The position numbers were made by a program, and so were the translations under genes. Below the pieces are notes generated by a model. That model had not been told where the DNA came from, made no database searches, and saw only the letters and a program-made list of their open reading frames with translations. Positions 325 through 64,000 of a stretch of DNA of 64,000 nucleotides are shown piece after piece. The number at the start of each line of letters is the position of its first letter. Position 1 is the stretch's first letter. This stretch comes from Amoebophrya sp. A120 (taxonomy: Eukaryota > Protista > Dinoflagellata): NCBI GenBank assembly GCA_905178155.1, contig CAJINV010000002.1, positions 3,725,838 through 3,789,837 on the forward strand. The letters run 5' to 3'.

Positions 325-2720
325 TCATGTTACATACCAGGGTGCCCTCCTGACCTCGGAGCGAAAGTGGTGTGCGGCTGCCCTGCGCGTGTTGACGAAC
401 CACTGGCGGTCCGATTGCCACTGCTTCTTGGCGCCCTCGAAGTCGGTGCGGCACTTGGCCAGCTCCTTCTGCTTAAACCCGTATGCATTGCAAATATGGT
501 TGGGCGGAGAAACTTGTGATGCTGGTGGAGAACGACGAGACGCCTGCATTGACTAGCAAGCATGGCAAGTTTTGGAGGAACTGCAATGTTGTCTATGTAT
601 TTTGCATGATAAAGCGAACTTCGGCATGAAAGGAAAATGAAGCTTTGGCTTTCGGGTAACGCGCATGACAGACATGAGCATTCTGCCAGCCAAGCATGAC
701 AAACCACCCATCTTTCCTGACCCAGACATATTTTCATTTGATAACCCGTTCAGCTCGGCGATCTTGGCCTTGTGGTTCTCCTCCAGAGCCGGTGGTGAAA
801 GTGAAAACCACTACTTAGGTTTGTCGCCTCATCTACAAGCAAACAGCACATAAAGTGCTGAGGGATCATTGTTGTATGCTGTCAGGGAAGACAGCCTGTA
901 TCAACGAGTCCTAAAAAAAAAGAAGGACGCCTCACCTTCAAGAATAACATGTCTACAAGAACATAGGCTCGCTGGAAATGGCGTCGTCAAAAACAAAATC
1001 AGCTTACACGATGCATAACAAGCCCATTTTGAAGCATACAGTAGATTTTTTTCACTTTCGTATTTTCATGGCGCTTTTCTTCGTTTCCTCGGCTTTCTTC
1101 TTCGCGGCCTCCGCTGCCTTGACGGCCTCTTCCGCCTTCTTGGCTTCCTCTTCCGCCTTCTTCTTCTTTTCCTTGTCCAAAGCGTCCTTGTCGGCGGCGT
1201 TTTTATTTATCAAATGCAAACATGTCTCGGTCTGGAAGGTTGCAAGGCCTGTCATGCAGGTTTTGCATAACGCGTGAGGTCTGTCATGCATGACCTAGCA
1301 TGACAGATTCTGTGCGCCCACTGTCATGCCTCGTCTGCATGAGAGCCTGCCACTCAGCTTTGTCAAAAGCCGACAGCTTTTGGTAATTATGCAACACAGA
1401 TTTAGATTTACGCATACGCACTATCCAGAATTAGCATGACAAGTTCCAGCGTTCCAGACCCAGAAATATTTGCAATGCATATTACTAGCTTCCGCCTGGT
1501 ACTTGGCCTGCACGGAGAGGGAGTCCTCATTTGCGGCTTCCGCGTTCGCCTCCTCGGTCTCCTGGGTCTCGGCGTTCTCCGGGTTCTCATCCGTCTTTTT
1601 GTTCAGATATGGAAGACGAAACACAAGAATTCTTTTACCTCTGGAGGAACGTAGGAAACGACAACTTTCTTTTAGGTATGTTAGGGTTTTGACAACAGCA
1701 GTTGCAGAAGACGCCAAAGCTTAAATGTGAAAATAAATGTTACAAAAAATTATGAACTGTGAATCAACCTATGCACACTGCTCAGACAAATCTACTTTCT
1801 TTTGGAAGTAACAATGTTGCATCACAGCGGTAAAATCCCGACTTTTTGCGATTTCGTACCGGATTTTCCGGATGCGGCCACCAGTCCTTGATATGGCGTT
1901 CTCAACTGTTTACACTCTCAACTGCTACACGCATTTGTAATGCAAGAATAGCAAAAGCCAAAGGGAGGAGGTTGCACCTCTAGCATTACAAATTCCGCAC
2001 AGATTTTAAGGCTATTTAGCACTTCAAAGATCTGTCATGTGAAACAGCGTGATCGTGTCGATTCTGATGGTGATTCTGCATGACAAATCCATGTAACAGT
2101 TGAGAATGTAACATTTGAGAACGCCATACTTGACGAAAAACGGGTTGGGGTGCTCATTCTCGGTGGGGTCCAGACGCTGTGATGGGAATGATTTATGTGT
2201 AACTTTGTCGAATCTATGAATATACAAAATTAAAATTTCCCTTCGATTTCCACACACCATGTGATGCATCTTCACAAAGCTGCTTCGAAGACCTTGTAAC
2301 CAACCTGTTTTACCACATGCACAAGCACATGCGGGCACGGAAACCCACGTTTGTCATGCTACCAACGGTGAAAGACTACCTTTAAACAAAGAAAAAAAAA
2401 ACATATTAATACGATGGTCGCCATCTGGTGTTCGGCGTTGAACTTGGCGAAGTCGAACTCCGCAGCCTTCTATCGCAAGAAAAAACTGTCTCACTGTGAA
2501 TTTGTGATGCAGAGAACGAAGCAGTAAAGTGTTTGTCTTGTTACAACTGCAACACAATGGATTTTTAAGCGGTCTTTCCCTTACGAAACGCGCATGGCAA
2601 ATTTTCTGTGTCATGTGTAGCAAACTTGTGATGCAGATCTTGCGAAACCATCACAGTGAAACAGTTTTTTCGTGGGATACCTTCTTCTTCAAGATCAACC
2701 TCTGCTTTTCTATCGGTTGG
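325..2720 (-). CDS. Hypothetical charged/coiled-coil protein, multi-exon, both ends uncertain
   Basis: Frames join after removing introners plus one TSD (e.g. AKIAELN|GFKQKELAKC; NPFFVK|DWWPHP); also GT-AG introns. Confidence 0.55.
482..743. mobile_element. Introner family A
   Basis: TAT..ATA TIR; TSD ACCCG. Confidence 0.9.
1208..1481. mobile_element. Introner family A
   Basis: TIR; TSD TTATT/TTACT. Confidence 0.88.
1892..2128. mobile_element. Introner family J
   Basis: TIR TATGGCGTTCTCAA; TSD CTTGA. Confidence 0.9.
2471..2679. mobile_element. Introner family E
   Basis: TIR TATCGCAAGAAAAAA; TSD CCTTC. Confidence 0.9.
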
Positions 2721-2827
2721 AAACACATGTCTGATGTTTTCTGGAAATAAAATCTCTGCACTGGTGAGTAGCATTAAAAGTTCTGCAGCCACTTGGCTCT
2801 GAAAAAATACCTATATTCTGCATGAGA

Positions 2828-5067: not shown

Positions 5068-5328
5068 TATGGAGTGCAAAAGTGTCTGGGTCTGGAAGGT
5101 TACAACTTGTCATGCTAAATCCGAATCATGCAAAAATCTGTGCTGCATGAATGCCAAAAGCTGTCGACTTTCGACCAAGTTGGGAGCCAGTTTCTCATGC
5201 AGGATAGGCATGGCAGAGACCCCACAGACTCTGTCATGCTAGGTCCCGCATTCCAGACCTCATGGGTCATCGGAAACCTGCATGACAAGCTTACACTCTT
5301 CCAGAGCCAGACATTTTTGCAATCCATA
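5068..5328. mobile_element. Introner family A (3' UTR)
   Basis: TIR; TSD GATCT/GATCG. Confidence 0.88.
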
Positions 5329-5339
5329 GATCGCCCTGC

Positions 5340-8038
5340 TCACACCGCCGGCACCTTGTAGACGGAGTTACGCCACCCGCCACCGCACTGCCGCTCGCCA
5401 TCCGCGGCTGGGGTTATGAAAGGGGAAGTTGTATTCCAGCTAGCTGCACAGTTGTCGGATCACAATCTATTTGTCATGCATTGACTACAAAACTCCTTCT
5501 TTGCTGCACTGACTGTTCCGCATGACAACATACGATCACGCGCTAGGCTGGTGAAATTTTCCCTGTACGATAAGGTCCTTCTTGCACGGGGTGCTGCAGT
5601 CGCCGTCCGGGGTCTGTGGTTTTGTTTGTCGAGCTGGTGCGCAATACAGATTCCAACGGTGCTGTGGCACGTGCATCACAAGTTCATGTCCCTCTATGCA
5701 TTCCGTCCTTTCCACATGCAAACTCCGCATCACAAATTCGACGGCCCACTTCACTCTTATACCTTCCCGTACTTCTCGTGGTCGTTTCCGTTGGAGCAGC
5801 GAGTATGGAGAGGAAGAAGGAACGTCTTTGCTATGCATACATCGCATGACAAATTTGCTCAGCATGAGAAATGAAATTTGCCATGTGGATTAACGTTATC
5901 AAATACTTTTGTAATCATGCATGACTAGACATGATCCCTTTCCCCTTCGGGTACAAGCACTGCTGGTAGGACTGGATCGCAAAAAATTCGTAGCCCGCAC
6001 AGTGTTATCCTGTGCAAAAGTATCGCACTCGTACTAATTGCAGTTATACATTACAAATCTAGTCGTTAAGGGAAATCCGCATTACAAATTTTATTTATCA
6101 TGCTCACAAAATTTGTAATGCATTTATACGAGTACGATGCTTTTGCAGTTGATAAGTGTTCGGCGCACTCCGCGACCGAGTACGCTCCCTTGGCCATTTT
6201 CCCCATGGCGCGCTGTCGCTTGTCCTGGAAGCAGCCTTATGAACTGCAAAAGTATGATCACACTCGTATAAATGCATTACAAATTTCCTCAGCATGAAAA
6301 ATGAAATTTGTAATGCTGATTTGCCTTCAGAAAAACATTTATGATGCAAAGCTTGCATTTATACGAATACGATACTTTTGCATTGGATAAACCCAAGAGG
6401 ACAAAAGGGTCGCCCGGCGGTGCGGGGGCGGATCCGGCGGTGGCGTCCGCGCCGGCGGTCACGGTGGTGGCTTTGTATGGATTGTAAAAATCCCTGGATG
6501 TCTGGAAACTTGTGATGCTGGGTGGCGTATCATGAGGAGGCCACAAGTGCTGGCTCAGCATGACAAGTTCCTGAGCTTCTATATGATGCCTATTCTGCAT
6601 GACAAACTGCGTTTTTGCATGACAGAAAAGTGAGGCTCTTGAGTAATGTGCATGACAGATTTAAGAGTCATGCCAGATCGAAGCATGACAAACTTGCACT
6701 CTTCCAGACCCAGACATTTTTACATTTGATACTTTGTTATCCCGAGCAAAAACGCCGTCATCCCATACTCAAGATTGATGACCACTCTGCAGGACAAATC
6801 CAGAACTTTTGGAACTCAACACGCATGACAAGCTCGACTGTGAAGTATAGCGCTGCCTTAGAGCCACTACAGACGCATTACAAATCTAACTCTAACCTCT
6901 TATCCTGATTCGCGCATGACAGATTTTTCCCAAACACCACTACAGAGCGGCTCTCATGGAGACGACCTGCATGAGAAACATTCTAAATCTACATGCGAAT
7001 TTGCATCACAAATCTGGGGTAATGACGACGTCGTTTTTCCGCACGATATTCCTTGGCTGACTCTTCGAAGTCCTTGGTGTTGGTGCCGCAATCACCCTTG
7101 ATGGCCTCGACGTTGGTGGAGTTGGATTCGTGGACCGCTTTGGCAGTGTAGTCCGTTAGGGATGTGACTTCCCCGAGAATGCACGGGAGCTTGCCGCCAG
7201 CACACGGATCTTTTATCTGAGAGGTTGTTTCGAGAAAATCAAAATGTACAGTCTGTTTTGCTACCGCGTAATACTATTACAATCCAAGAACAATATCGTC
7301 CACAAAACTCTGGTCATCTTATCGGAGAGGAGTCTGCTTTTACTTGAATTTTATTCTTTCAAGCCAACATACGATGGCAGGTTTGATTTTCAATGCCGTT
7401 CAACTTCGAAAATCAAGCTGCGGAATAAAACACGCTAAGTACCTTATCCGTGCAGCAACTGTCCGCCCCGCCTTCCCACGTGCACGGCGCCGCCGTGCCA
7501 ACGGCGACATCGTCGGACTTCCCCAGCTATGCATTGCAAATATGTTCGGGTCTGGAAGGTTGCACATTGTGATGCATGCTGTAGGTCACACAAAAATTTG
7601 TCTTGCGCGAGTTAGCACAAGATACACATTTTTGGCGATGTTGATGAAATTGCATTTCTCATACGGAATACGCACTGCGAAGCCGTTGTCTAGACCTCGC
7701 GGGACATCTGAAATCTGCATGACAAACTTCTGGATTCATCAACATCCAGACCCAGACATACTTGCATGTGATACCAGCTTGTTCTCGCACATCAATGGCA
7801 CGCATCCGACCTTGGTGGGGAAATCTTTGTTGGGAACGTAGTAGGGCGTTACCAACCCGTGCATCGAGTCACACTCCAGCGCCCACTCATCCTGCCGTTT
7901 TGATGTAGTGGTCTGCTGTGATATCTTTTTGCCTTTCTTCAATACCAAACCGGAGGCTGCGAGGAGGTCGCTGGAAGAGTAGTAAACGAGGGCGGCGGGA
8001 GCAAGCACCGAAGTGCGCAGCGAACGGGCGGTGGGCAT
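5340..8038 (-). CDS. Probable secreted WSC-domain protein
   Basis: Spliced product reads LGCFQD..VAECAEHCAGYEFFAIQSYQQCxCSN..YGKTPDGDCSTPC..QCGGGWRNSVY (WSC signature); hydrophobic N-terminus; 7 introners and 2 GT-AG introns (5614-5762, 7217-7442). Confidence 0.8.
5415..5572. mobile_element. Degenerate introner (family K)
   Basis: Weak TIR; removal plus 5 nt restores the WSC frame. Confidence 0.6.
5804..5953. mobile_element. Degenerate introner (family K)
   Basis: Weak TIR; removal plus 5 nt restores the CxC motif. Confidence 0.6.
6006..6154. mobile_element. Introner family B
   Basis: TIR TATCCTGTGCAAAAGTATCG; TSD AGTGT. Confidence 0.92.
6238..6389. mobile_element. Introner family B
   Basis: TIR; diverged TSD AGCCT/AACCC. 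Confidence 0.85.
6476..6731. mobile_element. Introner family A
   Basis: TIR; TSD CTTTG. Confidence 0.9.
6738..7048. mobile_element. Introner family C
   Basis: TIR; diverged TSD TTTGT/TTCCT. Confidence 0.8.
7528..7773. mobile_element. Introner family A
   Basis: TIR; TSD CCAGC. Confidence 0.9.
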
Positions 8039-8781
8039 GGTCCTATTACTCTACGTCTATGGTTCTTTAATATACAGTGTACTATTTTACAAAAAAGACC
8101 AAAATGGGCTTGTAAGTAGGGGAAGAAAACAAAGCACTACCAGAACCGAAATAAGTATGATCTTCGGGAAAATGATTATTCCGACGCCGCAAGAAGACCC
8201 TGCAGGTCAACCGTGATACGTGCGCGTCTTTAGCATGAAGATCGTGTGGAGAGAGCAGGTAGTTGTAATAGATCTTTCCATCTCAAGTGAAACCGCAAAA
8301 GAACCTGTTACGAAGTCCTTGATCGCCACCCTCGTCTGCGGGGGTGAACATCTTCTAAACACGTTTTATACCTGCAAAAATACCTTGACATCTCGTTTGA
8401 AATTTCCTTTCCTGTTTATTTCTCCGATTAGAAACACGTAGCTAGGGGCTACTCCAACTATCCTGTATTCTCAGAAACAAAGTTCTTCAGATAAACACGG
8501 CAAGAAACGCAGAGGGTTTTGTAACCCTCCAAAATGGACATTGCAAAATCATCAAGTAGTACCGTAAGAAACAGAGCTCACCTGGCAAGAAAACGGAAAG
8601 AACCACACCAGTACATAGCGATAGCTCCTACGTAATGTTTTTTTACTTGGTAGCAATAAACCGCAAACTCTATTCTCAAGAGCAAAATTAACTTCAGCAA
8701 GAAACCAAAGCTTATTCCTCCCGGCATCTCGATTCTCTATCCCAGCAAACGCAAAAACCACAGAATCGTCATCTCCCGTCT

Positions 8782-11700
8782 TCAAAACGCGTGCGCGGCC
8801 ATCGCGTCGAGTTTCGCCCGTATCCAAGAAAAAAACATTGTAGGTGTAACTTTTTTGGAGGAACAGCATTACAAATTTGTCTGGCATGACAGCAAAAGCC
8901 TGTCATGCACAGATAGTACTTGAAAACGCCCTTTAATGGACCCTGCGATGCATGCCAAGCATGACAGACGCAATCATCTTGCATGTTGCGCATCAGAAAT
9001 TTACACTAACAACGTTTTTTTCTTGGATAGCCCGCAACACTGGATTATTCTTCTCATTGATCAGCTTTTCTTTCATCGATTTTCGTTGGTGCGCCCGCCC
9101 GGCGTTGGCATCTTCCAGAAAGCTTTTCGGTAGTATATGGATTGCGCAGACGGAACAAAAATCTCGGCCGTGGAAACATGTATTAGGCATAAGTAGGTCT
9201 TTGTCTTGCATAAACGGCAGAAGCAGTGTCTACTTTTACTAGGTTGGTCTATCTTTGCATGGAAAATTTTATGCGAATTCCATAACTCTTGTGCAAGTTC
9301 GAGGAGTGTCCATGATTTGTCATGCTACACTCTCTGACCGCAGGACAGGTGATCCGCATTTTGCATCACAGATTGCATCATTTGACAGTGTAATTCCATC
9401 TGAGCAGGCCATACGGCACTTTCCAACCAACGTTGTAGCCGTAGATGGATTTCATTTCGGGAATATGCACGACAAAAGTTCTACTGTACGTAGGTTGCTC
9501 TTAGAGCACAAACCGCACGACAGGTTTGATGCTCAGATGTTGGCGATATTTGTCATGCAGGTTCAGGCACAACGAACGACATCTGTCATGCAGTATTGCA
9601 ACTTCGGTACAGTGTAGTACTTTTGCTCTACATACCTCACCTGTTTCCCCACCACCCCTTTCGCCTATGGATGTGTCAGGATCGAAATCGACAAAATCGA
9701 AAAACTTGCGATGCATAAAATGCAGGGCACTGAAGGCCTGTATTGGGGAGCAGGCAAATGAGACCGATTGCAAGACTGTTTAGGGGTACGCAATGTGCTG
9801 CCAGAGTAGCATGACAGGAGCAGTCTTCTTTGTCCAAACAGCATGACAGACTGGAGCTGGGTGCTCCCGAAATTTGTCGTGCGCCACTTGGAAACTGAGG
9901 CCCCAACTGGTATCGACTCCATGCATCACAAAATTTTCGACTTTGTCAATTTCGATTCTGACACTCCCATATCGCCTGCCCCTTCGTGATTTTTGACGCG
10001 TCCCCCGTGAGCCACTTCTGGTATTGCATTCCCTTATCAAAAGGAAAGCCCCCCCCTCCCCATATCGAAAACGAAATTTGTGTTGCTTTATTTGAGTACA
10101 CAAATCGACTTGTATTGCTAGAAGGCCAAGGGACGCAGTTGTGCCCTCATTTGGAGTCAATTTGTCATCCTGTTTCCCGTTTCCAGGTGCTTCCTGTCAT
10201 TCTGAAGACGCAAGGTGTTCCTGCGCCAGCCAGCACTACAGTCCGCATCTTTTCCCTTCTAGCATCACGAAGCTGATTTGTGGCCACAAATCTGCATCAC
10301 AGATTTCCACTTTGATATGGGGAGGGGGCATTTTTCATTGTAATATCCCTCCGCCTTTCTCTTTTCGATCATCTTGGCCAGCGTCGTCACTTTTCCGTCA
10401 ACCTTCCGCACCTCTGGCGTAGCTGGGTGAAAGTTTTTCAGCGACGCGATCGGTTTGCCAAAATGCATGGCTTTCTCCATCGGCGTTTTGAGAATGTTCT
10501 TCTGCGCCACCGGCATCGCCAGGCACAGAGGGCTTTGGTGCACTCCGGTTTGGTTCAGCTGCACGCCGAATTTACTCGTTTTCGAAGACACGTGCCCTAT
10601 CCTGTGGAAAAACGTCCCCACCCTAGAGTCAATGATTGGGATCTTCTCTGCAACACAAAGCCCGACGGTTTGGGAATCACGCATGCGAAGTTCCTCGCTG
10701 TATCGATTGGAGTGAGGGTTAGCAAGCGCAAGGACAGCCGCATCACAAGGCCATGTCCTTATGCTGTTTCTAGCATTACAAATGCAAAAACGCGTTTGAG
10801 AATGCCTCTCATGCGGATGCGCATGACAAGTTTGCCTGTTATTGCACATCCGCATGACAATTCCGGGGTGGGACGTGTTTCCAAAGGGTATCTCCCTCAC
10901 TGGTCTCACTGCTGAACCCGAACATCCCCTTGAAAGAATCAAATGCAAAAGCATCGCACGCGTACTAATCGCAGATATGCATGACAAACCTGATTCCCAG
11001 GGTAAATCAGCATGACAAATTACATTTTTCATGCTGCGGAAATTTGTCATGCGATTTATACGTCGTACGACCATACTTTTGCAATGCTTAGAAAGAATCC
11101 AAAAACGATTTCAAAATGGATTTCGCTTCTTCCGCCTGTTTCCCGACATTCTCCGGATTGTAGTCGTCCTGCCCCAGGCCTTGTCCCACGAAAAAAGTGT
11201 TACAGTTACACATTTGTAGTCAATTCAGCAACACAAATTCCTCTGCATGAGAGAGAAAACTTGTAATGCAGAAATCCTAGGGGAAAACACCTATGAAGCG
11301 AGGCTCCTATGCATATCCGGCATGACAGAGCTTGTCTGTCTTGCTTGGCCTGCAGAGACTATGTGTAACTGTAACACTTTTTTCTTGCGATAGGCCTGCC
11401 TTCTGAAACCCCGGGTCCTTACTGTTTGTCGCCTCAATGCGAAAATTCGCCGCCCGGTGCACGTTATGAATTGCAAAAGTAACGGACTAGTTCTAGTAAA
11501 AATTGCAACACAAACTGGCTCAGCATTACAAATTGAATTTGTAATGCGGATTTGCCTTGGGAACTAGATTTGTAAATGCATAAATGCAATTAGTACGAGT
11601 ACGATACTTTTGCACAGGATACACGTCCCGAACCGAGGACCAGGTGGGATTCAATGTGGTGTGCTGCAGGTAATTCGCGTCAAAACAGCCGTGCAACACG

Positions 11701-27049: not shown

Positions 27050-27319
27050 GATGGTCTGTTTGATTTTTGCGCCGTGACGCGAGTCCTCGTCTAGAGAACC
27101 TCTACGACCTCTTTCGTCCTCGTCCGCGATGGGAAATACACAGAGTTTGCTTCTGCAAACTGGGAATCGTTGGGGCCGGCACCTCCGGCAGGCGTTTTTA
27201 CTGGCTATCGCTTTTTCTTTGCGTTTCGCCAATCGATCTGCTTCCTAGTGGAGGTCCACGTACGGTCACGGCTATTCTTTTTGCCCGTAGAGATGTTCGC
27301 CGATGTAAGTAAATTTTGT

Positions 27320-44174: not shown

Positions 44175-44230
44175 GCTTTGCTTTTGGTTTTGCCTCTACT
44201 ACTACTTCTCACCACAGCGATGATTTTGCC

Positions 44231-50746: not shown

Positions 50747-51878
50747 GCTGTTTCGAATCAAAATGGCTAGAAGCCGGGTCGTAAGAGAAAATAAAAGTGT
50801 GCTGATGGTTGTTGTACTTTATCACATTAAGAGCAGGGGTAGACTTATTACTTGTATCAACGTACCAAAAACAGCGCTGGTTTGAAGGCAAAGCTGCTCT
50901 TGTTTAGGTAAAGAAGATAAAACCTGTCAGCCCGATCCAATAGTAGCAGTATGGGGGAATACACGAAGAATCTTTGAGTGAGAAATCTTCATAACATGGG
51001 GCGGTGGTTTCACAAATTCGCATCGGAGAAGTATTTCAACTACAACACTGATAGAAAGAAGGAAACAAGGGCAGCACTACATAGGGCGGGTAGGATAAAA
51101 CTTACGTGTTAGCTAAGCTACTTACAACAACGAGGTCGTTGCGAAGATTTACGACAAATTATTTCCTGAGGACTCCTGTCGACGAAAATTGAGTTTGTCA
51201 TGCGATGATGAATCATACTTGACATGACGACTATGCAGCATTGACTTTGACAGCGACCTAGATTTTTTCAACAAATGTACTAGTCCACTCTCCAGAGAAG
51301 TCAGAACTCTGTACTATCACTTCATCTCCACAAACAACAGAATCAGATTGACCGACCTGAGAAAGCGTCATGCGAGTCACGACATTATTACATCGGTGGC
51401 ATGAAATAGAAGAACACGATCAAAATCCTGTTCTGAAAAAAAACTCAATCTGCTCGTGGTTCTTGTAGAGCTGTCTTATGTACTTTCTCAAGCAGCACAA
51501 ATCGCAGCTCCAAAATCGAGAGAAATATCTTTTTACCGCCTCTGCCTACAAGCGTGTCTATGGGGGTACATATTTGCAATTTTCCTGACATAATTTTCAC
51601 TTCCGTCCTTTCTACTGGTAAAACTTTTGAAACGAGGTGTCATTTTTTACTTGCGTAGTTACTAGGTCTACTGTTGAAACATTTTCACGATCACGACTTA
51701 TTTTGAAACATCATTATTTGTAATTATTTGGTTTCGTTCATTTCTACTTACTTACGAACTCACTCACACAACTTTTTCTGTCACTTTTATAAAGTTTTAT
51801 TGTCTCATACACGAGCTCAGAATGGATCATACAAGCACAACACCAAATCACTCAATCTGCAGCTTCTCACACAGCTGC

Positions 51879-54800
51879 TCACTGTGTATGCATTGCAAAT
51901 ATGTCTGGGTCCGGAAAGTTGTGATGCTAATGTCCGAACGATACGTCGCAACTACCTGGATTTTTAGGGGGCCGCGCATGCCAGGTTATTTCTGAGCGGC
52001 TATGTCTAGCGTGAACCGCATGAAAAACGGCCTTTTTGCATCACAAACAAGTGGCACCACTGTAGCGCACCAAGCATGACAGATCTTTCTGTCTTGTCGC
52101 CCAAGCATGACAGACTTGCATTCTTCCAGACCTCCCAGACATGTTTGCAATGCATACTGTTCATGTTGGACCAATACTGAAACACATGGTACATGTAGCT
52201 TAAAATTCTCCGCTATCCTGAGTGCAAACGTCCCCACCCCATACTCAACATGGGCAATCTGCTACACAAATCCACAAGCTTTGGCGGTTGCGCATGACAA
52301 GTTTGGCCCCGTAGTGTAGTCCTGCTTAGCTCAATCAGCTGCATCACAGATCTAGCCCATTATGCTGATTGGAGCATTACAAATTCCAAAGCGCGACTAG
52401 ATAATGCTTCTCATGGGGCTCCGCATGACAAACATTTTGAGCATGCAGATTCGCATGACAACTATGGGGTGGGGACGTTTTTACATAGGATATCCGCTTT
52501 TTCTTGTTCACGATCTCGCGGTAAGTCGGCAACTTTCGCTATCCTGAGTAAAAACGGGACCCCCATGGTCATCAAGTTGCTGGGACGAACTCCGCAACAC
52601 AAATCCACAAGTTTTGGGCGACACGCAAAACAAGTTTCTTCCAGCATTGTAGTGCAGATTGGCAAGGACAGCCGCACTAGAAGAAAGCCGCCTCCTTATC
52701 CGGTCTGCAGCATTACACATGCCGAAACACGGTCTAGAATGCAACACGACTAGTTGTAAAAACGCCTCTCATTGGGATGCGCATTACCAGTTTTCCTGTA
52801 AATGCAAATCCGCATGACAACTCTACTGGGGTGTTTATGTACTGGAAAAGACCAAATTTAAACTACTGGGGTGGGGACGTTATATTTACTCATGATATTC
52901 GCTGCAACTCGTTCTGCATCGCTTTTTCGTCGTGGATCGACGCCCGCGTGCTCCGCCGCGTGGCTAGAGGGAGTCCGATATCCAATGTAAAAACGTCCCC
53001 AATCCAGATCTGCCAAGCAAATCTGCAAGCCTGAACACGTTTCTCATGCGCCGCTTCATGAGCAGCATTTTCTAAAATGCTACCTGGGAGTTCTTAGTCA
53101 TGCTAGACTCAGGATGGGGCGATCCATTTGTCATGCCGTTTTGCAGGATGAACAGGATTACACTACGAGCCCAAGGATGCTGTAATGCGCAACACACAAA
53201 GCTTGCTCGTTTCTTTCTGTAGCAAAGTGCCCATCTCGACTCTGGGGTCGTCGTGGGGACCTTTTCACACATGATATCCGGTAGTTCCAAAAGGTGCACC
53301 ACCGCCCCCATGATCTCCGGTCAACACCGACCGCCTCCCTGCAGCGGGGCCGTGCGCCCCTTCGTTGGGGGTTGCGTTGGGCGAAGTGGTACTACTAGAT
53401 CCGGGGAAGAAAACCGCGACCGACGACCGCCGCTTCTGCAGCGACCGGCGGCTAGACCGTTTGTCTGCGGGAGCAGGCGGTGGAGACCTATTACCGAGAC
53501 CGCTCTTGTGCTCCGTCTGTTTTCCCCGACCACCCGCTTTGCTGTTCGCCGGCACGTCTTGGCAACCGTGGCTTTTATTTCCCGCCGGCATGGCAACTAC
53601 TTTGCCAGGTTTCATTTTACTTACAGCGGCGGATGATGAATAAGAGGAATTGTCATTGCCCCGGCGCTTATTAACTGCAAATATGTCTGGGTCTGGAAAC
53701 TTGTAATGCTGATTTGTGAGTAGTGAACTCTCTGTCATGCACAGCCAAGCATGAGAAATCTTTGCGCGGCTTAGTGTTCTTGCGCTTTTCGCATGACAAA
53801 CTGCGTTTTGCATGACAAGCAAGAAGGTCTCGTCTTGGACACGCATCACAAACTCTTCAGTCGTGCCAGACCAGCATGACAAACCTTGCATCCTTCCAGA
53901 TATCCAGACATATTTGCATTGGATAGCGCTTGTGCTGGTTTCCTTTTTCTTCCAGTAAAGTGACCGCCGCTTGCATCGCTTTCGGACTGGTTTTATCAAG
54001 TGCAAAAATGTCTGGGTCTGGAAGAGTGCAAGATTTGTCATGCACATTTTGCATGACCCATGATGTCTGTGATGCCTGCCCTAGCATCACAAATTTGTGA
54101 GGGCTTTCTGATGCGTATCCTGCATGACAAATGCCCTCTCCGTGTAGCACAAAATCGAATCCTCTTGCTAGTCATGCAACACAGATTTTTTTAGAATCCG
54201 AAGACAGCATCAGAAGTTGCATCCTTCCAGACCCAGACATTTTTGCATTTGATAGGTTTCGCCCCCTCGCCGGACCTGCACCCGGGCACTGGTTCGGGGA
54301 CTGTTGGTTTTCGAAGCGGGAGTCGCGGCAGTTTTCGCTATGGAACGCAAATATGTCTGGATCTGGAAGGTTGCAGCTTGTGATGCTGTCTTTGGAAGGT
54401 AAAAATAATCTGTATTGCATGACCTTATTTACCCCTCAACCACTATATCCCCTTTACGACCACTACCTCAGGTAGGATCTCGGGGGAAAAGGGTCAAGCT
54501 CTAACGGGGGTCGGACCCGAGTGGAACCGTTAGAGTGGCTGCATGTCCTGGTCGACTCCGGAGATTCCAAGAGCACGGTCACGTTTCCAGCGGTAAACCA
54601 GGCAAAACACGAGGAACAGACAAAGACGAGAGACAGGGGCAGAGCCTATGGATTGCTGGGGTCTCCTGCAGCAGAACTAAAAAAACGTCGCTATGCGACT
54701 GGACTGGGATCTCCTGCAGTCCACCAAATGCCCTTTTTGAAAGCCGGGAAAGGGACCCCACCTAAAACTAGAGCCAAGAAGCAAACAGAAAGCGACCCAC

Positions 54801-57800
54801 GACGTGCGAGAAGCCGACGCTCCACTCCGAACCGCCGCTCTGCGAGCCCTCACCGAAGCGCTCCAAAAAGACTCTCCAGCCGAAACGACACCCCAGAAGC
54901 GACCAGGAGAGAACGACCGGCGACAACGACCACCTACACCCACCGCACGAAACAACGACGCTTTGATCTCGTTGTTTGCATTTTCCGTCGTACTACTCAC
55001 CTTCGTACCCGCGTCGGCGACCTTTTGTGTGTATGATGTTTATTTTGTGCCGCTATCTCTTCTATATTCAAAGCACCAAAAAAAACTTCTTTCCTACTGA
55101 TTCGCTTTTGAACTGCACTTGGCTTCTCATGTCATCTACTGTTCATCATTTTTTTTTCTTCTATTTTTTTTCGTCTAGGCCTGGCTTGTTTTACTGAGGC
55201 TCTTGTTGCTAGACACACAGCATAATATGACGATCAGCAGTCCGCTAGAAGATCATCTTCTTCGTCCTCCACCGGCCCGCTACTCTCTTCTTCCGCATCG
55301 TGCATAATTGCATCTCCATCTGCATCATAACTTTCCTGTTTTGCGCCTCCCTCAGTAATCCTGCATGACCAGCAAGAGGAGTTCAGTTCGTGCTACGCGG
55401 AGTGGGCGTTTCGCATGCGGAATACGCATCAGAAGGCCCGTCAAAAATCTGTGATGCTAGGTCATATTACAGGCATCATGGGTTAAGCAAAATATGCATG
55501 ACAAACTTGCATTCTTCCAGACCCAGACATTTTTGCATTTGATATTCGCAGTGGTTTCCCCAAATTCCTTTTCCCAATCCCTTTCCTTCATGCTCTTCGT
55601 CTTCATAAAATCCAGAAACGCCTCCTGCTCCGTTTGCTTCTTCATATCGCAAGAAAAAACTGCTTCACTGTAATGCAGAAACTGTATCTGAGAAGTGTTT
55701 GTCTTGCTACACAGGCCGCAAGACACTAGATTTTTAGATGTGTTTTCCCTTAGGAATCTCGCATGGCAAATTTTCTCTGTGATGTAGAACAAGCTTGTGA
55801 TGCAAAATAACTTGCAAAATCCTTACAGTAAACACTTTTTTCGTACGATACTTCAGTTCCGTATCGGAGTAAGCCGCTGCTTTTCGCTTGATCCGCCCCT
55901 TGCGCTTGTCCGTGATGTCTTTTTTGATCTATCAAATGCAAAAATGTCTGGGTCTGGAAACTTGTGACGCTAGAATGTGGATGATGGAAAGAGTTCCGAA
56001 TGCAACCCGGCGTGACAACTTTCCAGAACGCTCTCTCATAGGCAATCCGCATGAGAAATTGCGTTTTTGCATGTACTTAGAGGTCGCGACTTTTGTTGGT
56101 AATGCAATACAGATTTTCTAGGTATGGAAAGCTAGCATTACAAGTTCCAACCTTCCAGACCCAGACATTTTTGCAATCCATATGATCATGGTCTGGACCA
56201 TTTTCGTCGTGCGGTCCTTGATCACAATCGACTTCGCCGATCTGCCCGCACCAAACATCGTGTCAAACTCATCGTCAACCTCTTTCGCGATGCACTTCAT
56301 GACGAAGCTCCGCTCCATGGAAAACTCGTCGGTCTCTGTATCCTGTGTAAAAACGTCCCCACGACCCCCAGAGTCGCGATGGGGATTTCGCAACACAAAC
56401 CTAGAAGCTTTTGCCGTTTCGCATGACAAATTTGGACTCGTAGTGTAGTGCTATTTGAGGCAGTGAAGACACATATGCAAATCGACTACCTCATTGTGGT
56501 TCCAGATCCAGCATCACAAACCTCCAGATAGCATTAGAAAAAAGCTCTCATGTCGGTGCTGCGCATGAGAAACATTTTAGGCATGCCACTTTGCATGACA
56601 AGTCTGCGGTCGTGGGGACGTTTTTGTAAATGATACTCTGGAAATAAGCGGTTGAAATCCTCCTGCATCCGCTTGGTCCTCCTAGACGTTCTGGGTGGGG
56701 AAGTAGAAATGGTTTTGGGAGACGATGATAATTTTACTGCATTCTGTGGTCCCCCTTTCTTCGCGTTGCTGCTCACTGCAAACCGCAGCTTCGACCAACT
56801 AGTAGCGCCGGCAGTTTTGTTGGTTGTCGCCGCGCTCGATGTTCCATTGGTTTTATTCATCTGCTGCTCGTTGGATACAATGTTGATCGGGCCAGGATTA
56901 CTATCTCCCCTGTTGAGCTATCCTGAGCAAAAACGTCTCCACCTCGTAGTCAACTTGGTAAATCTGCAACACAAATCGCCAAGCTTTGGGAGTTGTGCAT
57001 GACAAGTTTCCGTCTGTAGTATAGTGTTGCTTAGCAAGGCAAGCCGCATGAGAGAGCCAATTTCTGATTCTGTTTACAGCATTACAAATGCCAAATCAGA
57101 ATTGAAAATGCCTCTCATCATGGGGATGCGCATTACAAACGTTCCTGTCATTGCGTATTTGCATTACAGCTCTGGGGTGGGGACGTTTTTGCTGAGGATA
57201 TGAGCGTCGTATCGTTAATGCCATGATTCAAAATATCTTCTCCGTTCCTATTCCGCTCACCTCCCTCCAGTTTCTGCTTCAGCAGCAACCTTTCCGTCCT
57301 GCGTATCCTGTGCAAAAGTATCGCACTCGTATAAATGCATTACAGATTTCCTCAGCATGAGAAATAAAATTTGTAATGCGGATTCAGCTTGAGAACAAGA
57401 TTTGCAATGCGTGTTTGCGATTACTACGAGTACAATACTTTTGCACAGGATACTGCGCCGCACAAACCAATTCCGCTTGCGTCGCCACGAAGCCCGCTTT
57501 TGCTGCTCTATGACCTGCTCAAACGTTACAATCTCAAACGTTACAATAGAGTCTGGATTTTGTCTTGCATGAAGAGCATGAGAAACGTATGTAGAGTTGC
57601 GCCTTTCGCAATACAAATTTCGCTGGATATCAATGTGGTGTTGGGTGCCGAAACTTGTCATGCGCAAACCTATGGGACTACGGTAAGTCATGCACTTCCT
57701 GCATCACAGATTTCCATATTCTATTGTAACGTTTGAGATTGTAACACCTGAGCAAGTTATATGCTCCTCTTCCCGTTTCTGCGCTTCCTCGTGTTCCTAT

Positions 57801-60800
57801 GAGAGTGCACAACCCCCCCATCCCCCTCATTTTTTGAAGGGCATAAACAGCAACACAAGTCCTGGCATAAATGCAGACTTTGCATGAAAAATTCGCCGCG
57901 ACCGATTCTAGTGCTGTTTCGGCTTCCGGAATCTGTCATGCAAGCAGCGCCAAAAGGAAAAGGATGGACTTGCTAATTGGCATGACAAATGAGAAGGAGT
58001 TGTGCATTGTCATAGTTCGCGCTCCAGCTTTTTCAGCGAGCTGGTCGAGAAGAAAAACGCGGAGGACCTCCTACGGCTATCAAATGCAAAAGTGTCTGGG
58101 TCTGGAAGGTCGGAACTTGTGATGCTAACTTTGGTCTCTAAAAAAATCTGCATTGCATGAGCAGCAAGAGGAGTCTAGTTTGTGCTACGCGGGGAGGGCG
58201 TTTGTCATGCGTAGTAGGCATCAGGAAACCCTCCAAAAATCTGTGATGCTAGGTCGTGCATTACAGACATTCTGGGTCATGCAAAGCGTGCATGACAGGT
58301 CGCAGAATCTTCCAGACCCAGACATTTTTGCATGTGATAACGGCGCTGCGTGCTGTAGCGCCGGTTTTGGAAGGGAGAGTTACGAAAGGAACTCGAGCCT
58401 GTGAAGTGGGAAGCTTTTTGATAAGAATATTATTGTTTCTGTTTGGATTTGATATCATCTACTTGCGCATGTTGACACTGACAGATTACGTTGCAACGAT
58501 AGTTGTGCAGAGCACGCTGCACAAGCGGAGAAAGAAGAAAAAAGGAATTGAATAGCAATCACACGACACAAAACAACGACCGTCGTCGTGTAAAAATACC
58601 TTTTGGCGCGATCGGCGTCATGAAATGTTTCAACCTAACTTTCGTCTTCTTCACGACCCCGCCGCCACTTTTTCCCAAGCTACTGCCCATCTGCTTCACA
58701 CTCTTTCGCTTCGCTGTGCTAGGGGCAAAGGGAGTTGAGGATTTTCGTCTTTGCGTGGACGAAGACGTGCTATGGATTGCAAAAATGTCTGGGTCTGGAA
58801 GATTCTAAACTTGTAATGCTGGCGCTGGATTCTAAAAAAATTTGTGTTGCATGACCAGCAAGAGGACTCCAGTTTGTGCTACGCGGAGAGGGCATTTCTC
58901 ATGCGGTAGAGGCATGACAAAGTCCTCTAAAGATATGTGATGCTAGGGTATGCATCACAGACATCATGGGTCATTCAAAATATGCATGACAAACCTGGCA
59001 ATCTTCCAGACCCAGATATTTTTGCAGTTGATACGTGACTTTCTTCACCGAAAGGCTGCTTGTCCGCCGCCGGTCGAATGCTACTTTCGTGCTTTTGCCC
59101 CCACTGCTGCCATCGGAATCATCATCATTATCGCTGTTGCAGCGACCTCCATTGTCACCGCTGCTGTGCTCCGATTGGTTTTCCGAGTCGTCTGAATCAG
59201 AATCATTGTCATCCGAAGCCTCCTGGTCGGATGAATCTTCAAACTGCTCCATGTCCAGATGCCCTAGGAGCCAAATTTCCGCCACGCGTGAAAATTTTTT
59301 CGCCAACTGAAATTTCTGAAACTCCCTTTTTGTCTCTTCCTTTTCCGTTTCGAGGAGGCGCTCGAGGAAGGAAGATTTCGTGCCGCAAAGGTGCATATGA
59401 ACTGCAAATATCGATCTGGGTCTGGAAGATGGCAACTACCCTGTGATGCTACCTTTGGACTCTGAAAACAATCTGCATTGCATGACCAGCAAGAGGAGGC
59501 CAGTTTGTGCTACGGGGCAAGGGAATTTGTCATGCGGAATAGGCATTAGGAAGCCTTGTAAAAATCTGTGATGCTACGTCATGCATTGCAGGCGTCATGG
59601 GTCATGGAAAATCTGCATGACAAGTCTTGCAACCTTCCAGACCCACACATATTTGCAACTCATAGTGCACGCAGTCTTGAATGGGTAAAAATGCGCTGGT
59701 GGTTGTAGTGCCCGCACTACAGGGCTGCAGCTGGGATGAGGACGAGTAGTTGCAAGAAGTTGATGAACTGCTTTGGGTTGAAGTTATTGGCACTAGAGCA
59801 GCTGCAGTCCCGCAGCTGGTGCTGAAACCATTTTTCCGCCCGATACAAAAACCGCCGAGAACCGAGGACTGCGGGTCGGAGAAGTGTGGTTTTCTAGTTT
59901 GCAGCTTCATGGCAGTCCCAGTGGTCCCTGGTGGCTTCGCCGGATGGTGGACGGTTTGTTTGTTCGCGTGGGGGAGGACAAACTGGTGGCCAGCACTCGC
60001 TGGTTGCTGGTGGCTGTTGCAGCCCAGAACACTTGCTGCACCTGTACTCATCCCATGTAGAATATCGACCGAAAAAAGTGCTTCACTGTAAGGATTTTGC
60101 AAGTTTTGCATTACAAGTTCGCTACACATGACAAAGAAGACTTGCCATGCGTGCTTCCGAAGGGAAAAGAACACGGCGAAAAACCAAATGCCTTGCATGT
60201 GTAGCAAGACAAATGGAAATGCGTCTGTGTTGCATTCTATGCATTACAACTTTACAGTGAAACAGTTTTTTCTTGCGATACAGGATCGGAATGTGTTGCC
60301 TTTGAAACTGTTCGACCACGACCGGAGAAGCGCCGCCGGTTGTACCGGTTTTCTTCAGCAGTCCAGCATGTTGGGATGGGCGCACAGCAGAGTGGTGATT
60401 ATTTCCAGGCGAGAGTACAACTCCGCTTCTGGTCCGGGGTGTCTGCGGGGGTGGTCTGCCCGTTCGGGAGGCCGTAGTTCGGAAGGGCGTTCGACCGTCT
60501 CCGTGATCGTGGTTCCAGCTACTTGTAGTTCCGCTTGTCACATCAGTGCTCGCCGCTCCACCCGTCGGAAAAAAATTTTTCGTCTCGGCGTTACTAAAAT
60601 TGGTCGTGTAATAACTCAATTTCCAGGGTTTCCGGACCTGTTTCTCCAAAATTTCCTTCACTGCATAAGGATCGTGCTTTCCCACACCCGCCGCGGCCTT
60701 TACCTGCCCGGGCTGCATGTTGTCACAGCTGCGCCGGAACTCCAAAAAATTCACATTTTCCTTGTTGCAACTACCACTACTCGCGAGTGCAGAGAAACTG

Positions 60801-60917
60801 CGCAGATCCGCCACGGCTCTTTGTTTCTCTTCCTTCCCCGCGTGACAATCTTCCACCAGCTCTTTTTTAAACCCTCGCCATCTTTCGTTCCGCAAAAACT
60901 GGGCCCACAACTCTTTG
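51879..60917 (-). CDS. Large hypothetical protein; 5' end uncertain (probably extends to ~61.2 kb)
   Basis: Frame joins at the introner junctions checked (18 elements); no recognised domain. Confidence 0.6.
51887..52156. mobile_element. Introner family A
   Basis: TIR; TSD CTGTG/CTGTT. Confidence 0.9.
52214..52492. mobile_element. Introner family C
   Basis: TIR; TSD TCCGC. Confidence 0.92.
52540..52897. mobile_element. Introner family C (expanded)
   Basis: TIR; TSD TTCGC. Confidence 0.9.
52979..53276. mobile_element. Introner family C
   Basis: TIR; TSD TCCGA/TCCGG. Confidence 0.88.
53669..53925. mobile_element. Introner family A
   Basis: TIR; TSD GCGCT. Confidence 0.92.
53994..54254. mobile_element. 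Introner family A
   Basis: TIR; TSD GGTTT. Confidence 0.92.
54339..55544. mobile_element. Introner family A carrying a nested 937-bp insertion
   Basis: TIRs 1.2 kb apart; TSD TTCGC. Confidence 0.9.
54425..55361 (-). mobile_element. 937-bp insertion nested in an introner; probable 5'-truncated retroposed sequence
   Basis: 9-bp duplication TGCATGACC at 54416-54424 and 55362-55370; the introner sequence resumes exactly after it. Confidence 0.8.
55645..55850. mobile_element. Introner family E
   Basis: TIR; TSD CTTCA. Confidence 0.92.
55930..56182. mobile_element. Introner family A
   Basis: TIR; TSD TGATC. Confidence 0.92.
56339..56635. mobile_element. Introner family C
   Basis: TIR; TSD CTCTG. 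Confidence 0.92.
56919..57200. mobile_element. Introner family C
   Basis: TIR; TSD TGAGC. Confidence 0.92.
57304..57452. mobile_element. Introner family B
   Basis: TIR; TSD CTGCG. Confidence 0.92.
57509..57761. mobile_element. Introner family H
   Basis: TIR; TSD TGCTC. Confidence 0.92.
57798..58014. mobile_element. Introner family G
   Basis: TIR; TSD GTTCC/GTTCG. Confidence 0.9.
58078..58339. mobile_element. Introner family A
   Basis: TIR; TSD ACGGC; reverse complement of 18179-18447 subfamily. Confidence 0.92.
58771..59033. mobile_element. Introner family A
   Basis: TIR; TSD CGTGC/CGTGA. Confidence 0.9.
59396..59664. mobile_element. Introner family A
   Basis: TIR; TSD GTGCA. Confidence 0.92.
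60063..60280. mobile_element. Introner family E
   Basis: TIR; TSD TAGAA/CAGGA. Confidence 0.85.
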
Positions 60918-62250
60918 TATGAAATGCAAATATGTCTGGTTCGGGAAGATTCTTACATTTGTCACGCATGCAGAAATTTCGATTGCTGCTACGGTGGAAT
61001 GTAGATTTCGCACAAAACAGCTGCTGCGATCAATTGCTTTTTTCGTTGGAATGTGTAGACATTTCATCGCGCGCCGCTTTCAAATGTGGTTTTCCCCTTC
61101 AAAAAAAACCTATCGGCGTCATATTTGTTCATAGTGATTGCTGAAAAAGCGCAACACTGCTCGAAATTTGGATTGTTTTTCATCAGTTCAACACGCACAA
61201 AAACCCATGAAAAAGTCGCCAGGATTACATCCGAACTGGCCTTGTGACCATGCTGAAAAAGTCGCCTGGCTTTCTTGAAGAACACCAGCAGCAACGGCTC
61301 CCCGTGTCTCTCGTAGGGCGTGCAGCTCGCTCTTGTCTCCTGTAGGACGTAGGGACCCCGCTTGCGCGCGCCCTTGTGCGTCCTAATTGTGCGCCACTGT
61401 GCGCCCCGCTTCCTTGCGTCAGGGCCAGTTTGGTCGCGCATTGTCCCGGTGCAATTCTGCGGCCCTGGGATACAGTGCTCCCCCGTTCCTCTTCGACAAT
61501 GCGTGCCCTCGTCCGTGTATTGCAAGGGCCCCGCGCCGGGCGCGATCGTGCTTGCTGTTATTGCGGGGGCCGGCGCTGTTGCGGGCCCGCCGTCGCGCTG
61601 GACACCGAAAGCGCACAGGCCACCGAGCACGGAGAACCGGCTCGCGGCGAAAGCGCAGACCCCCGCGCCCTTTCCCCCCCCCCTCCCCCGTAATCTCGGT
61701 TTGCCCTTCGCCCCTTCGCCCGAAGCAAACTAGTTCCAACGATTGGAGCGGCCCCACTTCTCGCGTATCCAAACTTCCTAGCTCGTCGGCGATTTCCGCA
61801 CCTCGCTTGCCGTGGTAGCAGAGGGCTTTCCTCCGTAGCTAGGCTCTTTTCCGTCTGCGCACCCATGCAACTAAGAGCGAGCGCGCCCTTTCGTTGGTTT
61901 CGCGTTCTCTTTTTCGCGCCCGCATTTAATAGGGACCAAGGTCCGCCTGCGCCGCTGCTGCACGTTTCGCGGAGCTATTTGCGCCAGCAATGCGCTTCTC
62001 ATTCCCTTAGACCATTGCATTGCTGGCTTTGCTTCGATTTTGGTTTTTGCGCTGCATATTTCTTAGGGTTGCTTTACATTTTATTTTGCGCAAAGCCCCT
62101 TTGTTTATGTTCTTTCGCCCATTGATTTCCCAAAGTTGCCTTTTGTTGGTTTCATATCAAAACGACAGCGGGGAAATCCTTTCGCTGATGTCGCGCCTTG
62201 CTCTCTTTTTTTCGTGCGCGAAAGAAAATCACCACACCACAGCGAGGGAA

Positions 62251-64000
62251 CTATGGGCGACTGTTGGTCAGCAGTTCATTTCTCCCGTAGACCATTGCAT
62301 TGCTGTTTTTCCTTCGATTGTTCTTTTTCCGGCAATCGAATGCTTTGCGCAATCCACCGGCTTGGAGAGATGTGGGTCGTTTTCTCGGGTTCGGATGTTC
62401 TGCTTTGCTTTCACAGGGAAAAAGGCACGCGATTGCTTCGCTTTTGCTTTTGCGATGCTTGCGTGCAAAAATCCTGTCGCAGTATATTTTCAACATTTCG
62501 TAGTGATGCTCAACATCTCATCCTAAAACAACATTCCACCGTACTGCATGCATGTCTGACATGACTCGAGAATCTGTGATGCATGGGCAGGAAAAGACTC
62601 TCCTATCTGTCATGCAAAAACGCAGTTTCTCATGCGGAATACGCAACACATAGCAACTCAAAAACTTGTCATGCTGGGCTGCGTATTGCAGTCCGGCTAT
62701 CTTCATCCACTTTTTGCATCACAAGTTTCCACACCCAGACATTTTTGCATTTGGTACTTTGTCCGAGGGAACAAACAGCGTGATTGAGTTCGATAACGCG
62801 ATGAGCAGCCGCTTTGGCAATCGCCGCACCATGTCCTGGCGACTCATCACGTACAGGGAGCAGAAACCGTCGGAAACAAGGGACACCGGGAGGAGCCGGC
62901 TGTGCAGGATCTCCCGATGCCCGAAGAACTGGTTCGAAGAGAGGATCCCCACTTGCAGGAGCAGTTTTGCTATGCATTGCAAAAGTATCGCATTCGTACA
63001 AATGCATCACAAATTTCCTCAGCGTGAGAAATGAAATTTGTAATGCGGATTTACCTCAAGAAAAGAATTTGTAATGCATGATTGCAATACGAGTGCGATA
63101 CTTTTGCACAGGATATTTGCGTGCTCGATTTTCGTGTTTTGGTCGATCGTCGTACTGTTGAAATGGATATCAAATGCAAAAATGTCTGGGTCTGGAAGGT
63201 CGGAACTTGTCATGCTAAATCTGAATCACGCAAAAATCTGTGTTGCATGATTACCAAATGCTGTCCACTTTTGTTCAAGTTGAGAGGCAGTTTCTCATGC
63301 AGGATACGCATGACAGTGATCTCACGGAATCTCTTATGCTAGGTCCTCCATTACAGATCATATGGGGCATGGAAAACCTGCATGACAAGTCGCGCAAAGT
63401 TCCAGACCCAGACATTTTTGCATTTGATAATGGAACCGGGCGGTTTTCGAAGATGAACTCGCTGTCGTTGTTTTTTTCTCCGATGATGTAGTTGCTGATT
63501 TCCCGTTGCTCTCTTCGTCTTCGATAATTTTGCCGATTCCCTTGGTCTGCAGCCATTTTTTCACGTCGATATTTTCCATTTGCACTTTTTCCTCCTGGAT
63601 CAAGTGTAAAAAACGTGTCTGGGTCCTCGGGGGAGGTGGAACCTGTGTTGCGTGTCTGGCACTCCTGTAAAATCTGTATTGCGTGACCAACTACAAAAGC
63701 GCGAGCTCTTTTGTCATGCACGAATGCAGCAGTTTCTTTCGAATGCGCGCCACGCATGCGGAAGCATAGCGTCCTAAAAGCATGCCATGCTTGGCTGCAC
63801 TGAGGAGTATGCTCAATCATCGCGACTCAGCATCACAAGCTTATTGCAGACCCAGACCTATTCGCACTGGATATCCTGTAAAGTCGGCTGCAGCTTGTTC
63901 GTCGTCTCGCTCTATCCTGAGTAAAAACGTCCCCACCCCAGAGTTGTCATGCAGATTTGCAAAGACAGGAAGACTTCTAATGCGCATCCCCATGAGAGCC
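62251..64000 (-). CDS. 3' part of a cyclic-nucleotide-binding-domain protein (runs off the window)
   Basis: LQVGILSSNQFFGHREIL..VSLVSDGFCSLYVMSRQD resembles a cNMP-domain C-terminal half; last exon uncertain. Confidence 0.55.
62971..63115. mobile_element. Introner family B
   Basis: TIR; TSD TTTGC. Confidence 0.92.
63168..63429. mobile_element. Introner family A
   Basis: TIR; TSD ATGGA. Confidence 0.92.
63598..63873. mobile_element. Introner family A (GAT start)
   Basis: TIR; TSD TCCTG. Confidence 0.88.
63913..64000. mobile_element. Introner family C, cut by the window edge
   Basis: Left TIR TATCCTGAGTAAAAACGTCCCCACCCC. Confidence 0.85.

Follow-up and report, generated by a model that had tools for sequence, protein, structure and literature searches.

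A 64,000-nucleotide stretch of DNA from Amoebophrya sp. A120 (the window, here always the whole stretch) contains 89 transposon-like elements that carry terminal inverted repeats (TIRs), typically begin with TAT and end with ATA, and lie between 5-bp direct repeats. Our analysis indicates that they are, almost certainly, introner elements of A120 and that they are removed exactly from transcripts. The cuts very probably fall in a fixed register, 1 nt before the TAT and 4 nt after the ATA. We hypothesize, with a probability of about 0.55, that the elements are removed by a modified major spliceosome, with a terminal hairpin replacing the GT-AG signals.

Removal is documented by contigs of the sequencing runs X3 to X6, which we presume to be RNA and which represent two samples of one study. 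In the VIT1-family gene, the contigs skip exactly the element plus 5 nt at all 15 joints listed, none of which permits a GT-AG reading, and the contig coordinates yield the 16th by arithmetic; one contig lacks all 16 elements of this gene. The original prediction had proposed such RNA junctions as its test, and these joints carry its claim of a precise, GT-AG-independent excision. In an open reading frame (ORF) of 552 amino acids (aa), an X3 contig joins directly across the element at 56339-56635 and has 311 nt over a stretch for which the removal of five elements, one of them 1,206 bp long, predicts 311 nt. The prediction had also claimed that, at the junctions it translated, deleting an element with one copy of its repeat restores the frame; when this deletion is applied, 72 of 82 elements come to lie in an ORF of at least 150 aa. 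Control removals of 0, 1, 3, 4, 6, or 7 nt do so for 42 to 54 of the 82, and removals of 2 and 8 nt, which belong to the same frame class, for 72 and 68.

In the deposited gene model of the A120 protein P0001, 17 elements are each removed as element plus 5 nt. That of P0002 removes 13 elements with lengths that equal element plus 5 nt; those at 41328 and 41670 are read as one 547-nt sum around a 15-nt micro-exon (within 41650-41669). The RNA data behind the contigs may also underlie the deposited models, which hence do not count as independent evidence. Element 36464-36668 of P0002 was identified from a 210-nt gap. Its transcript-5' TIR has decayed except for TA, and it is still removed as element plus 5 nt in the model, so full TIR pairing may be dispensable.

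The raw-read runs X9 and X10 placed only 27 and 334 reads on the window, nearly all on short element-like stretches with 90 to 95% identity. In X10, which bears the same species label, more than 100 reads are 90 to 95% like one element family at 45450-45503, 47915-47955, and 56381-56404, with no exon covered; X10 is perhaps a relative with kindred repeats.

The catalogue of elements was built from paired TIR matches, to which decayed copies were added. When the window was scanned for inverted ends with direct repeats of 2 to 8 bp, a dominant start triplet appeared at a repeat length of 5 and at no other: 46 of the 55 hits with a 5-bp repeat start with TAT, and five shuffles gave 1 to 6 hits. 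The window holds 54 exact TAT...ATA pairs that are flanked by an exact 5-bp repeat (51 with real TIRs), compared with 2 to 9 in 20 shuffles. The final 89 paired elements occupy 24,871 of the 64,000 bases. Perfect TAT...ATA ends are present in 81 of them, and the two copies of the 5-bp repeat differ at 0, 1, 2, 3, and 4 positions in 57, 18, 11, 1, and 2 elements, respectively. Among the 102 seed ends, all of which have TAT, for which they were selected, an A occupies TIR positions 11, 12, and 13 in 85, 85, and 96. These data confirm the original prediction of about 90 introns that resemble miniature inverted-repeat transposable elements (MITEs), with TAT...ATA ends and 5-bp target duplications; their TIRs, fixed-length target duplication, short length, and many dispersed copies in both orientations are those of MITEs. 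Two further claims also held. At least 10 families had been proposed, and BLAST sorts 81 elements into 13 clusters when 50% coverage is required and into 16 at 70%. The 5-bp repeat had been said to lack a target consensus, and none was found by per-position chi-square tests (p = 0.05 to 0.52, n = 364). The predicted length of 145 to 360 bp applies to 87 elements (145 to 358 bp; mean, 251 bp) but not to two of 1,206 and 1,839 bp. That every gene is interrupted is true of all modelled genes, which lie on the minus strand, even though element-free stretches of up to 4.8 kb occur in the window; the claim has to be qualified in that canonical GT-AG introns occur too (12156-12285 in a deposited model; 31170-31318 and 30831-31031, predicted).

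The two long elements, 54339-55544 (1,206 bp) and 60918-62756 (1,839 bp), belong to the commonest family, and their interiors (about 0.9 and 1.5 kb) are unique. A Pfam search of their interior ORFs (two in the former, four in the latter) gave no match, and neither interior matched the 410 kb of outside contigs described below.

Perfect repeats hide the position of the cut, and unequal repeats expose it. We let a denote how many intron bases precede the TAT, a count that is informative only where the repeat copies differ. The RNA contigs set a≥1 at 43892, 44630, and 46093, a≤4 at 44630 and 45421, a≤3 at 47026 and 47553, and a≤1 at 49029. At this last element (49029-49296, minus strand), the repeats are TACTC and TGCTC, and the G of the right copy is kept (67 nt between the pieces, 0 other letters, four runs). 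The deposited models set a≥1 at 42308 and 37956 and a≤1 at 12478, 10598, and 9136; at element 9464-9634 (minus strand), with eroded repeats (one of five bases alike), the deposited protein permits a=1 only. Homologues keep D at 10598 (P0006) and PP at 9136 (P0004), as required by a≤1. The sole single value that fits all 13 informative junctions is a=1, giving the intron N-TAT...ATA-NNNN, and cuts at varying positions, with a=1 among them, may be an alternative to the fixed register. In Table S4 of Farhat et al. 2021 (PMC7789003), all nine listed predominant types of non-canonical A120 introns begin with N-T and all nine of strain A25 with TT, starts that may depend on how repeat ambiguity was handled. 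The A25 repeats start with TTA-R-R (PMC7789003), and together with the Table S4 starts this means that both strains would read N-T-A at +1 to +3. An AT drift of the intronic repeat copy, used as a register test, showed no pattern.

Orientation and end conservation were studied in a larger sample. A TIR pattern scan yielded 181 loci outside the window (L001 to L181; 410 kb when merged), 180 of them from the public metagenome-collection assembly JACKZZ01; L149 is the one locus from another assembly. The JACKZZ01 loci hold the same element families, with copies of up to 93% identity. One calling procedure found 358 elements outside, 75 in the window, and 0 in the shuffled window. The strand was assigned by a codon model (58 of 59 confident leave-one-out calls were right), and the oriented set comprises 364 of the 433 called elements, with 69 omitted because their strand or flank was not confident. 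The orientations relative to the transcript are 54:54, 22:34, 22:27, and 13:12 in the four largest families, and no family is significantly skewed; since families occur in both orientations, it is the symmetric TIR that has to carry the signals.

The two ends are not conserved alike. The three bases of the 5' TAT deviate in 0, 3, and 6 of the 364 oriented elements and those of the 3' ATA in 1, 5, and 9 (Fisher p = 0.0009), an asymmetry that is also found in the 289 outside elements alone (p = 0.005) and in the 89 window elements (p = 0.018). If the a=1 register holds, T+2 is kept in 364, A+3 in 361, and A-7 in 363 of the 364. The contrasts between the same bases on the same strand argue against mutation bias as the cause of the asymmetry. 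Folding of 25 elements is predicted with a median z of -7.8, and TIR positions 9 to 13 are predicted to pair with a probability of 0.85 to 0.94 (120 elements), with weaker pairing at positions 4 to 7.

How would a spliceosome process such introns? A non-autonomous TIR element would insert into an exon in either orientation and duplicate 5 bp, as the observed anatomy and orientations suggest. Pairing of the two TIRs, predicted for the transcript, would draw the ends together. The cuts would be made inside both repeat copies, so that the upstream copy keeps four bases, the downstream copy keeps one, and the original codons are rebuilt; the removed length is observed, and the register is deduced from the 13 junctions. 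With the same TIR at its two ends, an element in either orientation would offer N-U-A-U at the 5' end, aligned with the canonical G-U-A, and a U-rich tract followed by A-7 at the 3' end. The donor would then be U+2 and A+3, the branch nucleotide A-7, and the 3' cut would be set by distance and not by AG. Given the a=1 register, the elements have the U+2 (and usually the A+3) of U2-type introns, whereas any GT-AG reading is possible at 17 of 275 exact-repeat elements, and GT(GC)-AG ends are not a property of the set. Among the 364 elements, there is a weak excess of G at +1 (126 versus 108, p = 0.044) and of AG at -2/-1 (36 versus 25.7, p = 0.040), p-values that are uncorrected and come from a background lacking codon-phase matching. 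Farhat et al. found 83 of 89 spliceosomal proteins and the U2, U4, U5, and U6 RNAs in A120 (PMC7789003). The non-canonical introns of the tunicate Fritillaria are handled by the U2 spliceosome (PMC13326754; review PMC11282704), and branch motifs located 1 nt from the 3' motif are reported for Yarrowia (PMC13309789). It is the position of U+2 and A+3 at the canonical donor place, the start of the A25 repeats, the near-complete spliceosome, and the tunicate precedent that lead us to favor a modified spliceosome. Its most specific form, to which we give somewhat less than even odds, is a major spliceosome that does without G+1, without AG, and without a recognizable U1 small nuclear RNA (snRNA). 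Donor (U+2, A+3), branch adenosine (A-7), and a hairpin bridge would then all come from the TIR in either orientation, a 7-nt ruler would set the 3' cut, and any insertion would be an exact intron from the start.

Several results weigh against a spliceosome that reads these positions. With a=1, just 126 of the 364 elements have G at +1 and just 36 end in AG. A preference for G at +5 is absent (137 versus 147 at the mirror position), G+1 or AG do not rise in elements with eroded repeats, positions +1 and -1 do not covary (p = 0.36), and the excess of G-U over A-C in the stem has a p of 0.07. Repeat mismatches favoring G at +1 were considered and dropped, as the window (5 versus 0 among 6) was not replicated by the outside set (5 versus 6). 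The candidate branch A is predicted to be paired with a probability of about 0.75 and has no UACUAAC-like context. U1 snRNA was reported as undetected in either strain, A120 or A25 (PMC7789003). Any enzyme that senses direction could account for the end asymmetry, and some of the deviating ends may be related by descent, with three ending in ACAGGATG. As for the register, the upper bound a≤1 comes from RNA at the single junction at 49029, in two samples of one study; gt, gc, ga, and at are common among the annotated A120 donors, the deposited models may favor GT or AT starts, and five of the six model junctions do start with GT or AT at a=1.

A machinery separate from the spliceosome is not the reading that we favor. 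A system like that proposed for Euglena, in which an endonuclease would bind the TIR stem and cut both strands at the base of the hairpin, at fixed distances of 1 nt and 4 nt that are staggered by 3 nt, before a ligase joins the exons and a circle or linear RNA is released, nevertheless explains the same data nearly as well, and we regard it as a real possibility that falls well short of even odds. It would account for the lack of a real GT or AG requirement, the orientation independence of the families, the strong predicted hairpins, and the failure to detect U1 snRNA (PMC7789003), and Euglena introns have a genetically demonstrated fixed-spacer code, N3-CDG...CHG-N5-6, and give rise to circles (PMC12501133). 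Against it, the register places U+2 and A+3 exactly at the canonical donor positions in A120 and, judging from the published repeat starts, in A25 (PMC7789003). The weak excess of G+1 and AG and the removal of element 36464-36668 in the deposited model despite an eroded 5' TIR that keeps TA also speak against it, and we know of no such hairpin-cutting enzyme in A120.

The direct repeats themselves could guide the joining, by a process like recombination or slippage that acts anywhere in the repeat and has no fixed register. This would be consistent with the 57 of 89 repeats that are perfect, with the variable placement of splice sites with respect to the hairpin described by Farhat et al. (PMC7789003), and with the automatic calls of Gozashti et al., which differ among A120 families (PMC12130899). 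It is improbable, since removal as element plus 5 nt persists where the repeat copies agree at just one to three of five bases (44630 in RNA; 9136, 9464, and 12478 in the model) and all 13 informative junctions fit a=1. That the elements are excised from DNA, like the internal eliminated sequences of ciliates, and that the joined contigs are somatic DNA, is very improbable. The RNA status of X3 to X6 is a presumption, and the X1 joints are uninformative on joined DNA, but contigs of X1 extend across elements and on into exons with 0 other letters, the strand-dependent end conservation points to the RNA level, and Farhat et al. validated such introns with RNA-seq (PMC7789003). Least credible of all is that reverse transcriptase produced the joins by switching templates and that the elements stay in the mRNA. 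A hairpin with direct repeats is a known setting for this artefact, and the joins are known from contigs derived from cDNA only. Retention would, however, cause a frameshift or stops in all three frames for 86 of 89 elements, and the spliced products are conserved proteins; moreover, one contig lacks all 16 VIT1 elements, and at 49029, where a 3-nt overlap is available, the join has one of 1 nt.

The class of elements is already known in the A120 strain itself. The original prediction named introner elements of Amoebophrya as a precedent, and the window is indeed from A120, two of its exons being 100% identical to the A120 proteins P0001 and P0002. According to Farhat et al. (PMC7789003), about 65% of A120 introns are non-canonical, with a length of about 240 nt, and their inverted repeats consist of TAT, seven variable bases, and at least three A's, flanked by direct repeats of 3 to 5 nt (5 bp in the legend of Fig. 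S19). The window elements share the organism, the length of about 240 nt, the TAT+7+AAA inverted repeat, a direct repeat within that range, the division into many families, and the RNA-supported removal at non-GT-AG borders alongside canonical introns, and do not differ in kind. The same paper calls the borders variable or unknown, without a splicing signature, and reports that no cognate autonomous element or transposase was found in A120. The probable 1/4 register, the orientation symmetry, and the strand-dependent end conservation are not stated in the text of that paper that we compared, and these three are what the present analysis adds. Gozashti et al. 2025 list 58 A120 families, mostly classified as "TIR DNA, Unknown" among the 22 compared here (Dataset S2, PMC12130899); among these 22, the automatically determined repeat lengths (2 to 5) and the origin of the splice sites vary, with no common register. 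Their family 38 has integrase-like ORFs and lacks Ginger termini. No transposase ORF was found in the long elements of the window. We found no statement on the register or mechanism for A120 in a literature coverage that is incomplete, and the figure logos of Farhat et al. (Fig. 3 and S19 to S25) may show part of it.

Other lineages offer partial parallels. The nonconventional introns of Euglena (Nomura et al. 2025, PMC12501133) resemble the A120 elements in that they probably derive from MITEs, pair at their ends, are cut at set distances from a paired motif, and occur together with GT-AG introns. They differ in having a CDG/CHG motif with spacers of 3 and 5 to 6 and a purine after the 3' cut, in contrast to TAT/ATA with spacers of 1 and 4 in A120, where multicopy families are clear and the 5-bp repeats mostly intact; the lineages are unrelated, and the window elements, with ends N-TAT...ATA-N4, do not carry the Euglena signature N3-CDG...CHG-N5-6. 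The non-canonical introns of Fritillaria borealis are likewise derived from transposons with TIRs and target duplications and are removed without GT-AG, but they prefer the ends AG-AC and AG-AT and come with a retained U1 snRNA and an altered U2AF (PMC13326754; PMC11282704), whereas the A120 elements show almost no constraint at +1, -2, and -1, and no U1 snRNA was detected in the strain. The introner elements of Micromonas and Aureococcus are also non-autonomous TIR elements that become introns; their splice sites come from the target duplication and keep canonical motifs (Huff et al. 2016, as cited in PMC7789003), which the A120 elements do not. Amoebophrya ex Karlodinium has mostly GT-AG introns, with U1 present (PMC12005148), and diplonemids provide further context (PMC12621601).

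The elements are spread over the following genes. The gene of P0001 (798 aa; 8996..15842, minus strand) contains one GT-AG intron, 12156-12285, and 17 elements: 9136-9413, 9464-9634, 9666-9971, 10035-10345, 10598-10890, 10937-11090, 11182-11392, 11465-11621, 11830-12045, 12478-12746, 13086-13341, 13398-13696, 13799-14053, 14149-14431, 14475-14688, 14786-15093, and 15152-15408. The protein is colinear with the A25 orthologue P0004 (43%) and the homologue P0006 (53%). The deposited P0001 ends in element 8821-9029, whose TIR provides the last 11 codons before the stop; this ending may be an annotation slip or retention. The gene of P0002 (1439 aa; 35102..42852, minus strand) has its 13 elements at 35523-35817, 35858-36122, 36242-36395, 36464-36668, 37956-38279, 38492-38746, 39989-40297, 40366-40677, 41027-41294, 41328-41649, 41670-41884, 41953-42241, and 42308-42463. 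The VIT1-family gene (43700..49400, minus strand), with PF01988 on two exons, has 16, at 43892-44174, 44266-44558, 44630-44918, 45114-45360, 45421-45692, 45731-45995, 46093-46345, 46466-46742, 46802-46977, 47026-47299, 47333-47503, 47553-47817, 47870-48154, 48212-48518, 48750-48956, and 49029-49296. Upstream of the VIT1 exons, a cluster of decayed or nested TIR ends (49406-50549) stands outside the 89-element catalogue. The 552-aa ORF (51851..58429, minus strand) is interrupted by 15 elements: 51887-52156, 52214-52492, 52540-52897, 52979-53276, 53669-53925, 53994-54254, 54339-55544, 55645-55850, 55930-56182, 56339-56635, 56919-57200, 57304-57452, 57509-57761, 57798-58014, and 58078-58339.

The phosphomannomutase gene (30700..32356, minus strand, left end approximate) carries the elements 31419-31685 and 31849-32110 and two predicted GT-AG introns, 31170-31318 and 30831-31031; positions 1-28, 28-81, and 81-115 of Pfam PF03332 fall on three successive exons. 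The GT-AG introns of the window thus share genes with elements, a point in favor of a spliceosome, and they start with GTATTT, GTAAGG, and GTATGT. The one at 12156-12285 starts with G-TAT, has ACA at -7 to -5, and resembles a fully decayed element in the same register.

Other elements were placed by ORF restoration. They include 18179-18447, 22072-22333, 22380-22540, 23030-23340, 23387-23639, 25501-25779, 25871-26028, and 26406-26629 in the region 17753..27244 (minus strand), where ORFs of 351, 1220, and 693 aa result; an element end at 22523 was dropped in favor of 22540, which would restore the 1220-aa frame. A 681-aa ORF with a weak cNMP-binding match (58562..64000, minus strand) has seven elements, 58771-59033, 59396-59664, 60063-60280, 60918-62756, 62971-63115, 63168-63429, and 63598-63873, and a partial one, 63913-64000, that is cut by the end of the window. 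In the region 482..2679, the elements 482-743, 1208-1481, 1892-2128, and 2471-2679 were recognized by their TIRs and 5-bp repeats, and those in the region 5068..9029 (5068-5328, 6006-6154, 6238-6389, 6476-6731, 6738-7048, 7528-7773, and 8821-9029) were called from sequence alone. Two of the latter, 6476-6731 and 6738-7048, are 6 bp apart (6732-6737) with overlapping repeats; removing both would leave a 1-nt exon and an open frame of 156 aa, so that the pair would require either a 1-nt exon or sequential removal. The window also contains a tandem duplication of about 1.1 kb with 82% identity (2825-4937), which is devoid of elements, and, within an element-free stretch, two adjoining imperfect palindromes of 147 and 198 bp (28181-28505).

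In summary, A120 splices tens of thousands of such elements, and the probable fixed register makes the mechanism testable. It would turn the absence of a splicing signature into a short code, N-U-A ... A-7 with a cut 4 nt past the hairpin, which names a place to look for a lariat, the bases to mutate, and a re-annotation of the intron borders of the genome. If the spliceosome does this work, it has dropped the terminal G and the AG that are thought to be central to exon ligation; if it does not, A120 would possess a second, independent splicing system with a hairpin ruler, beside that of Euglena.

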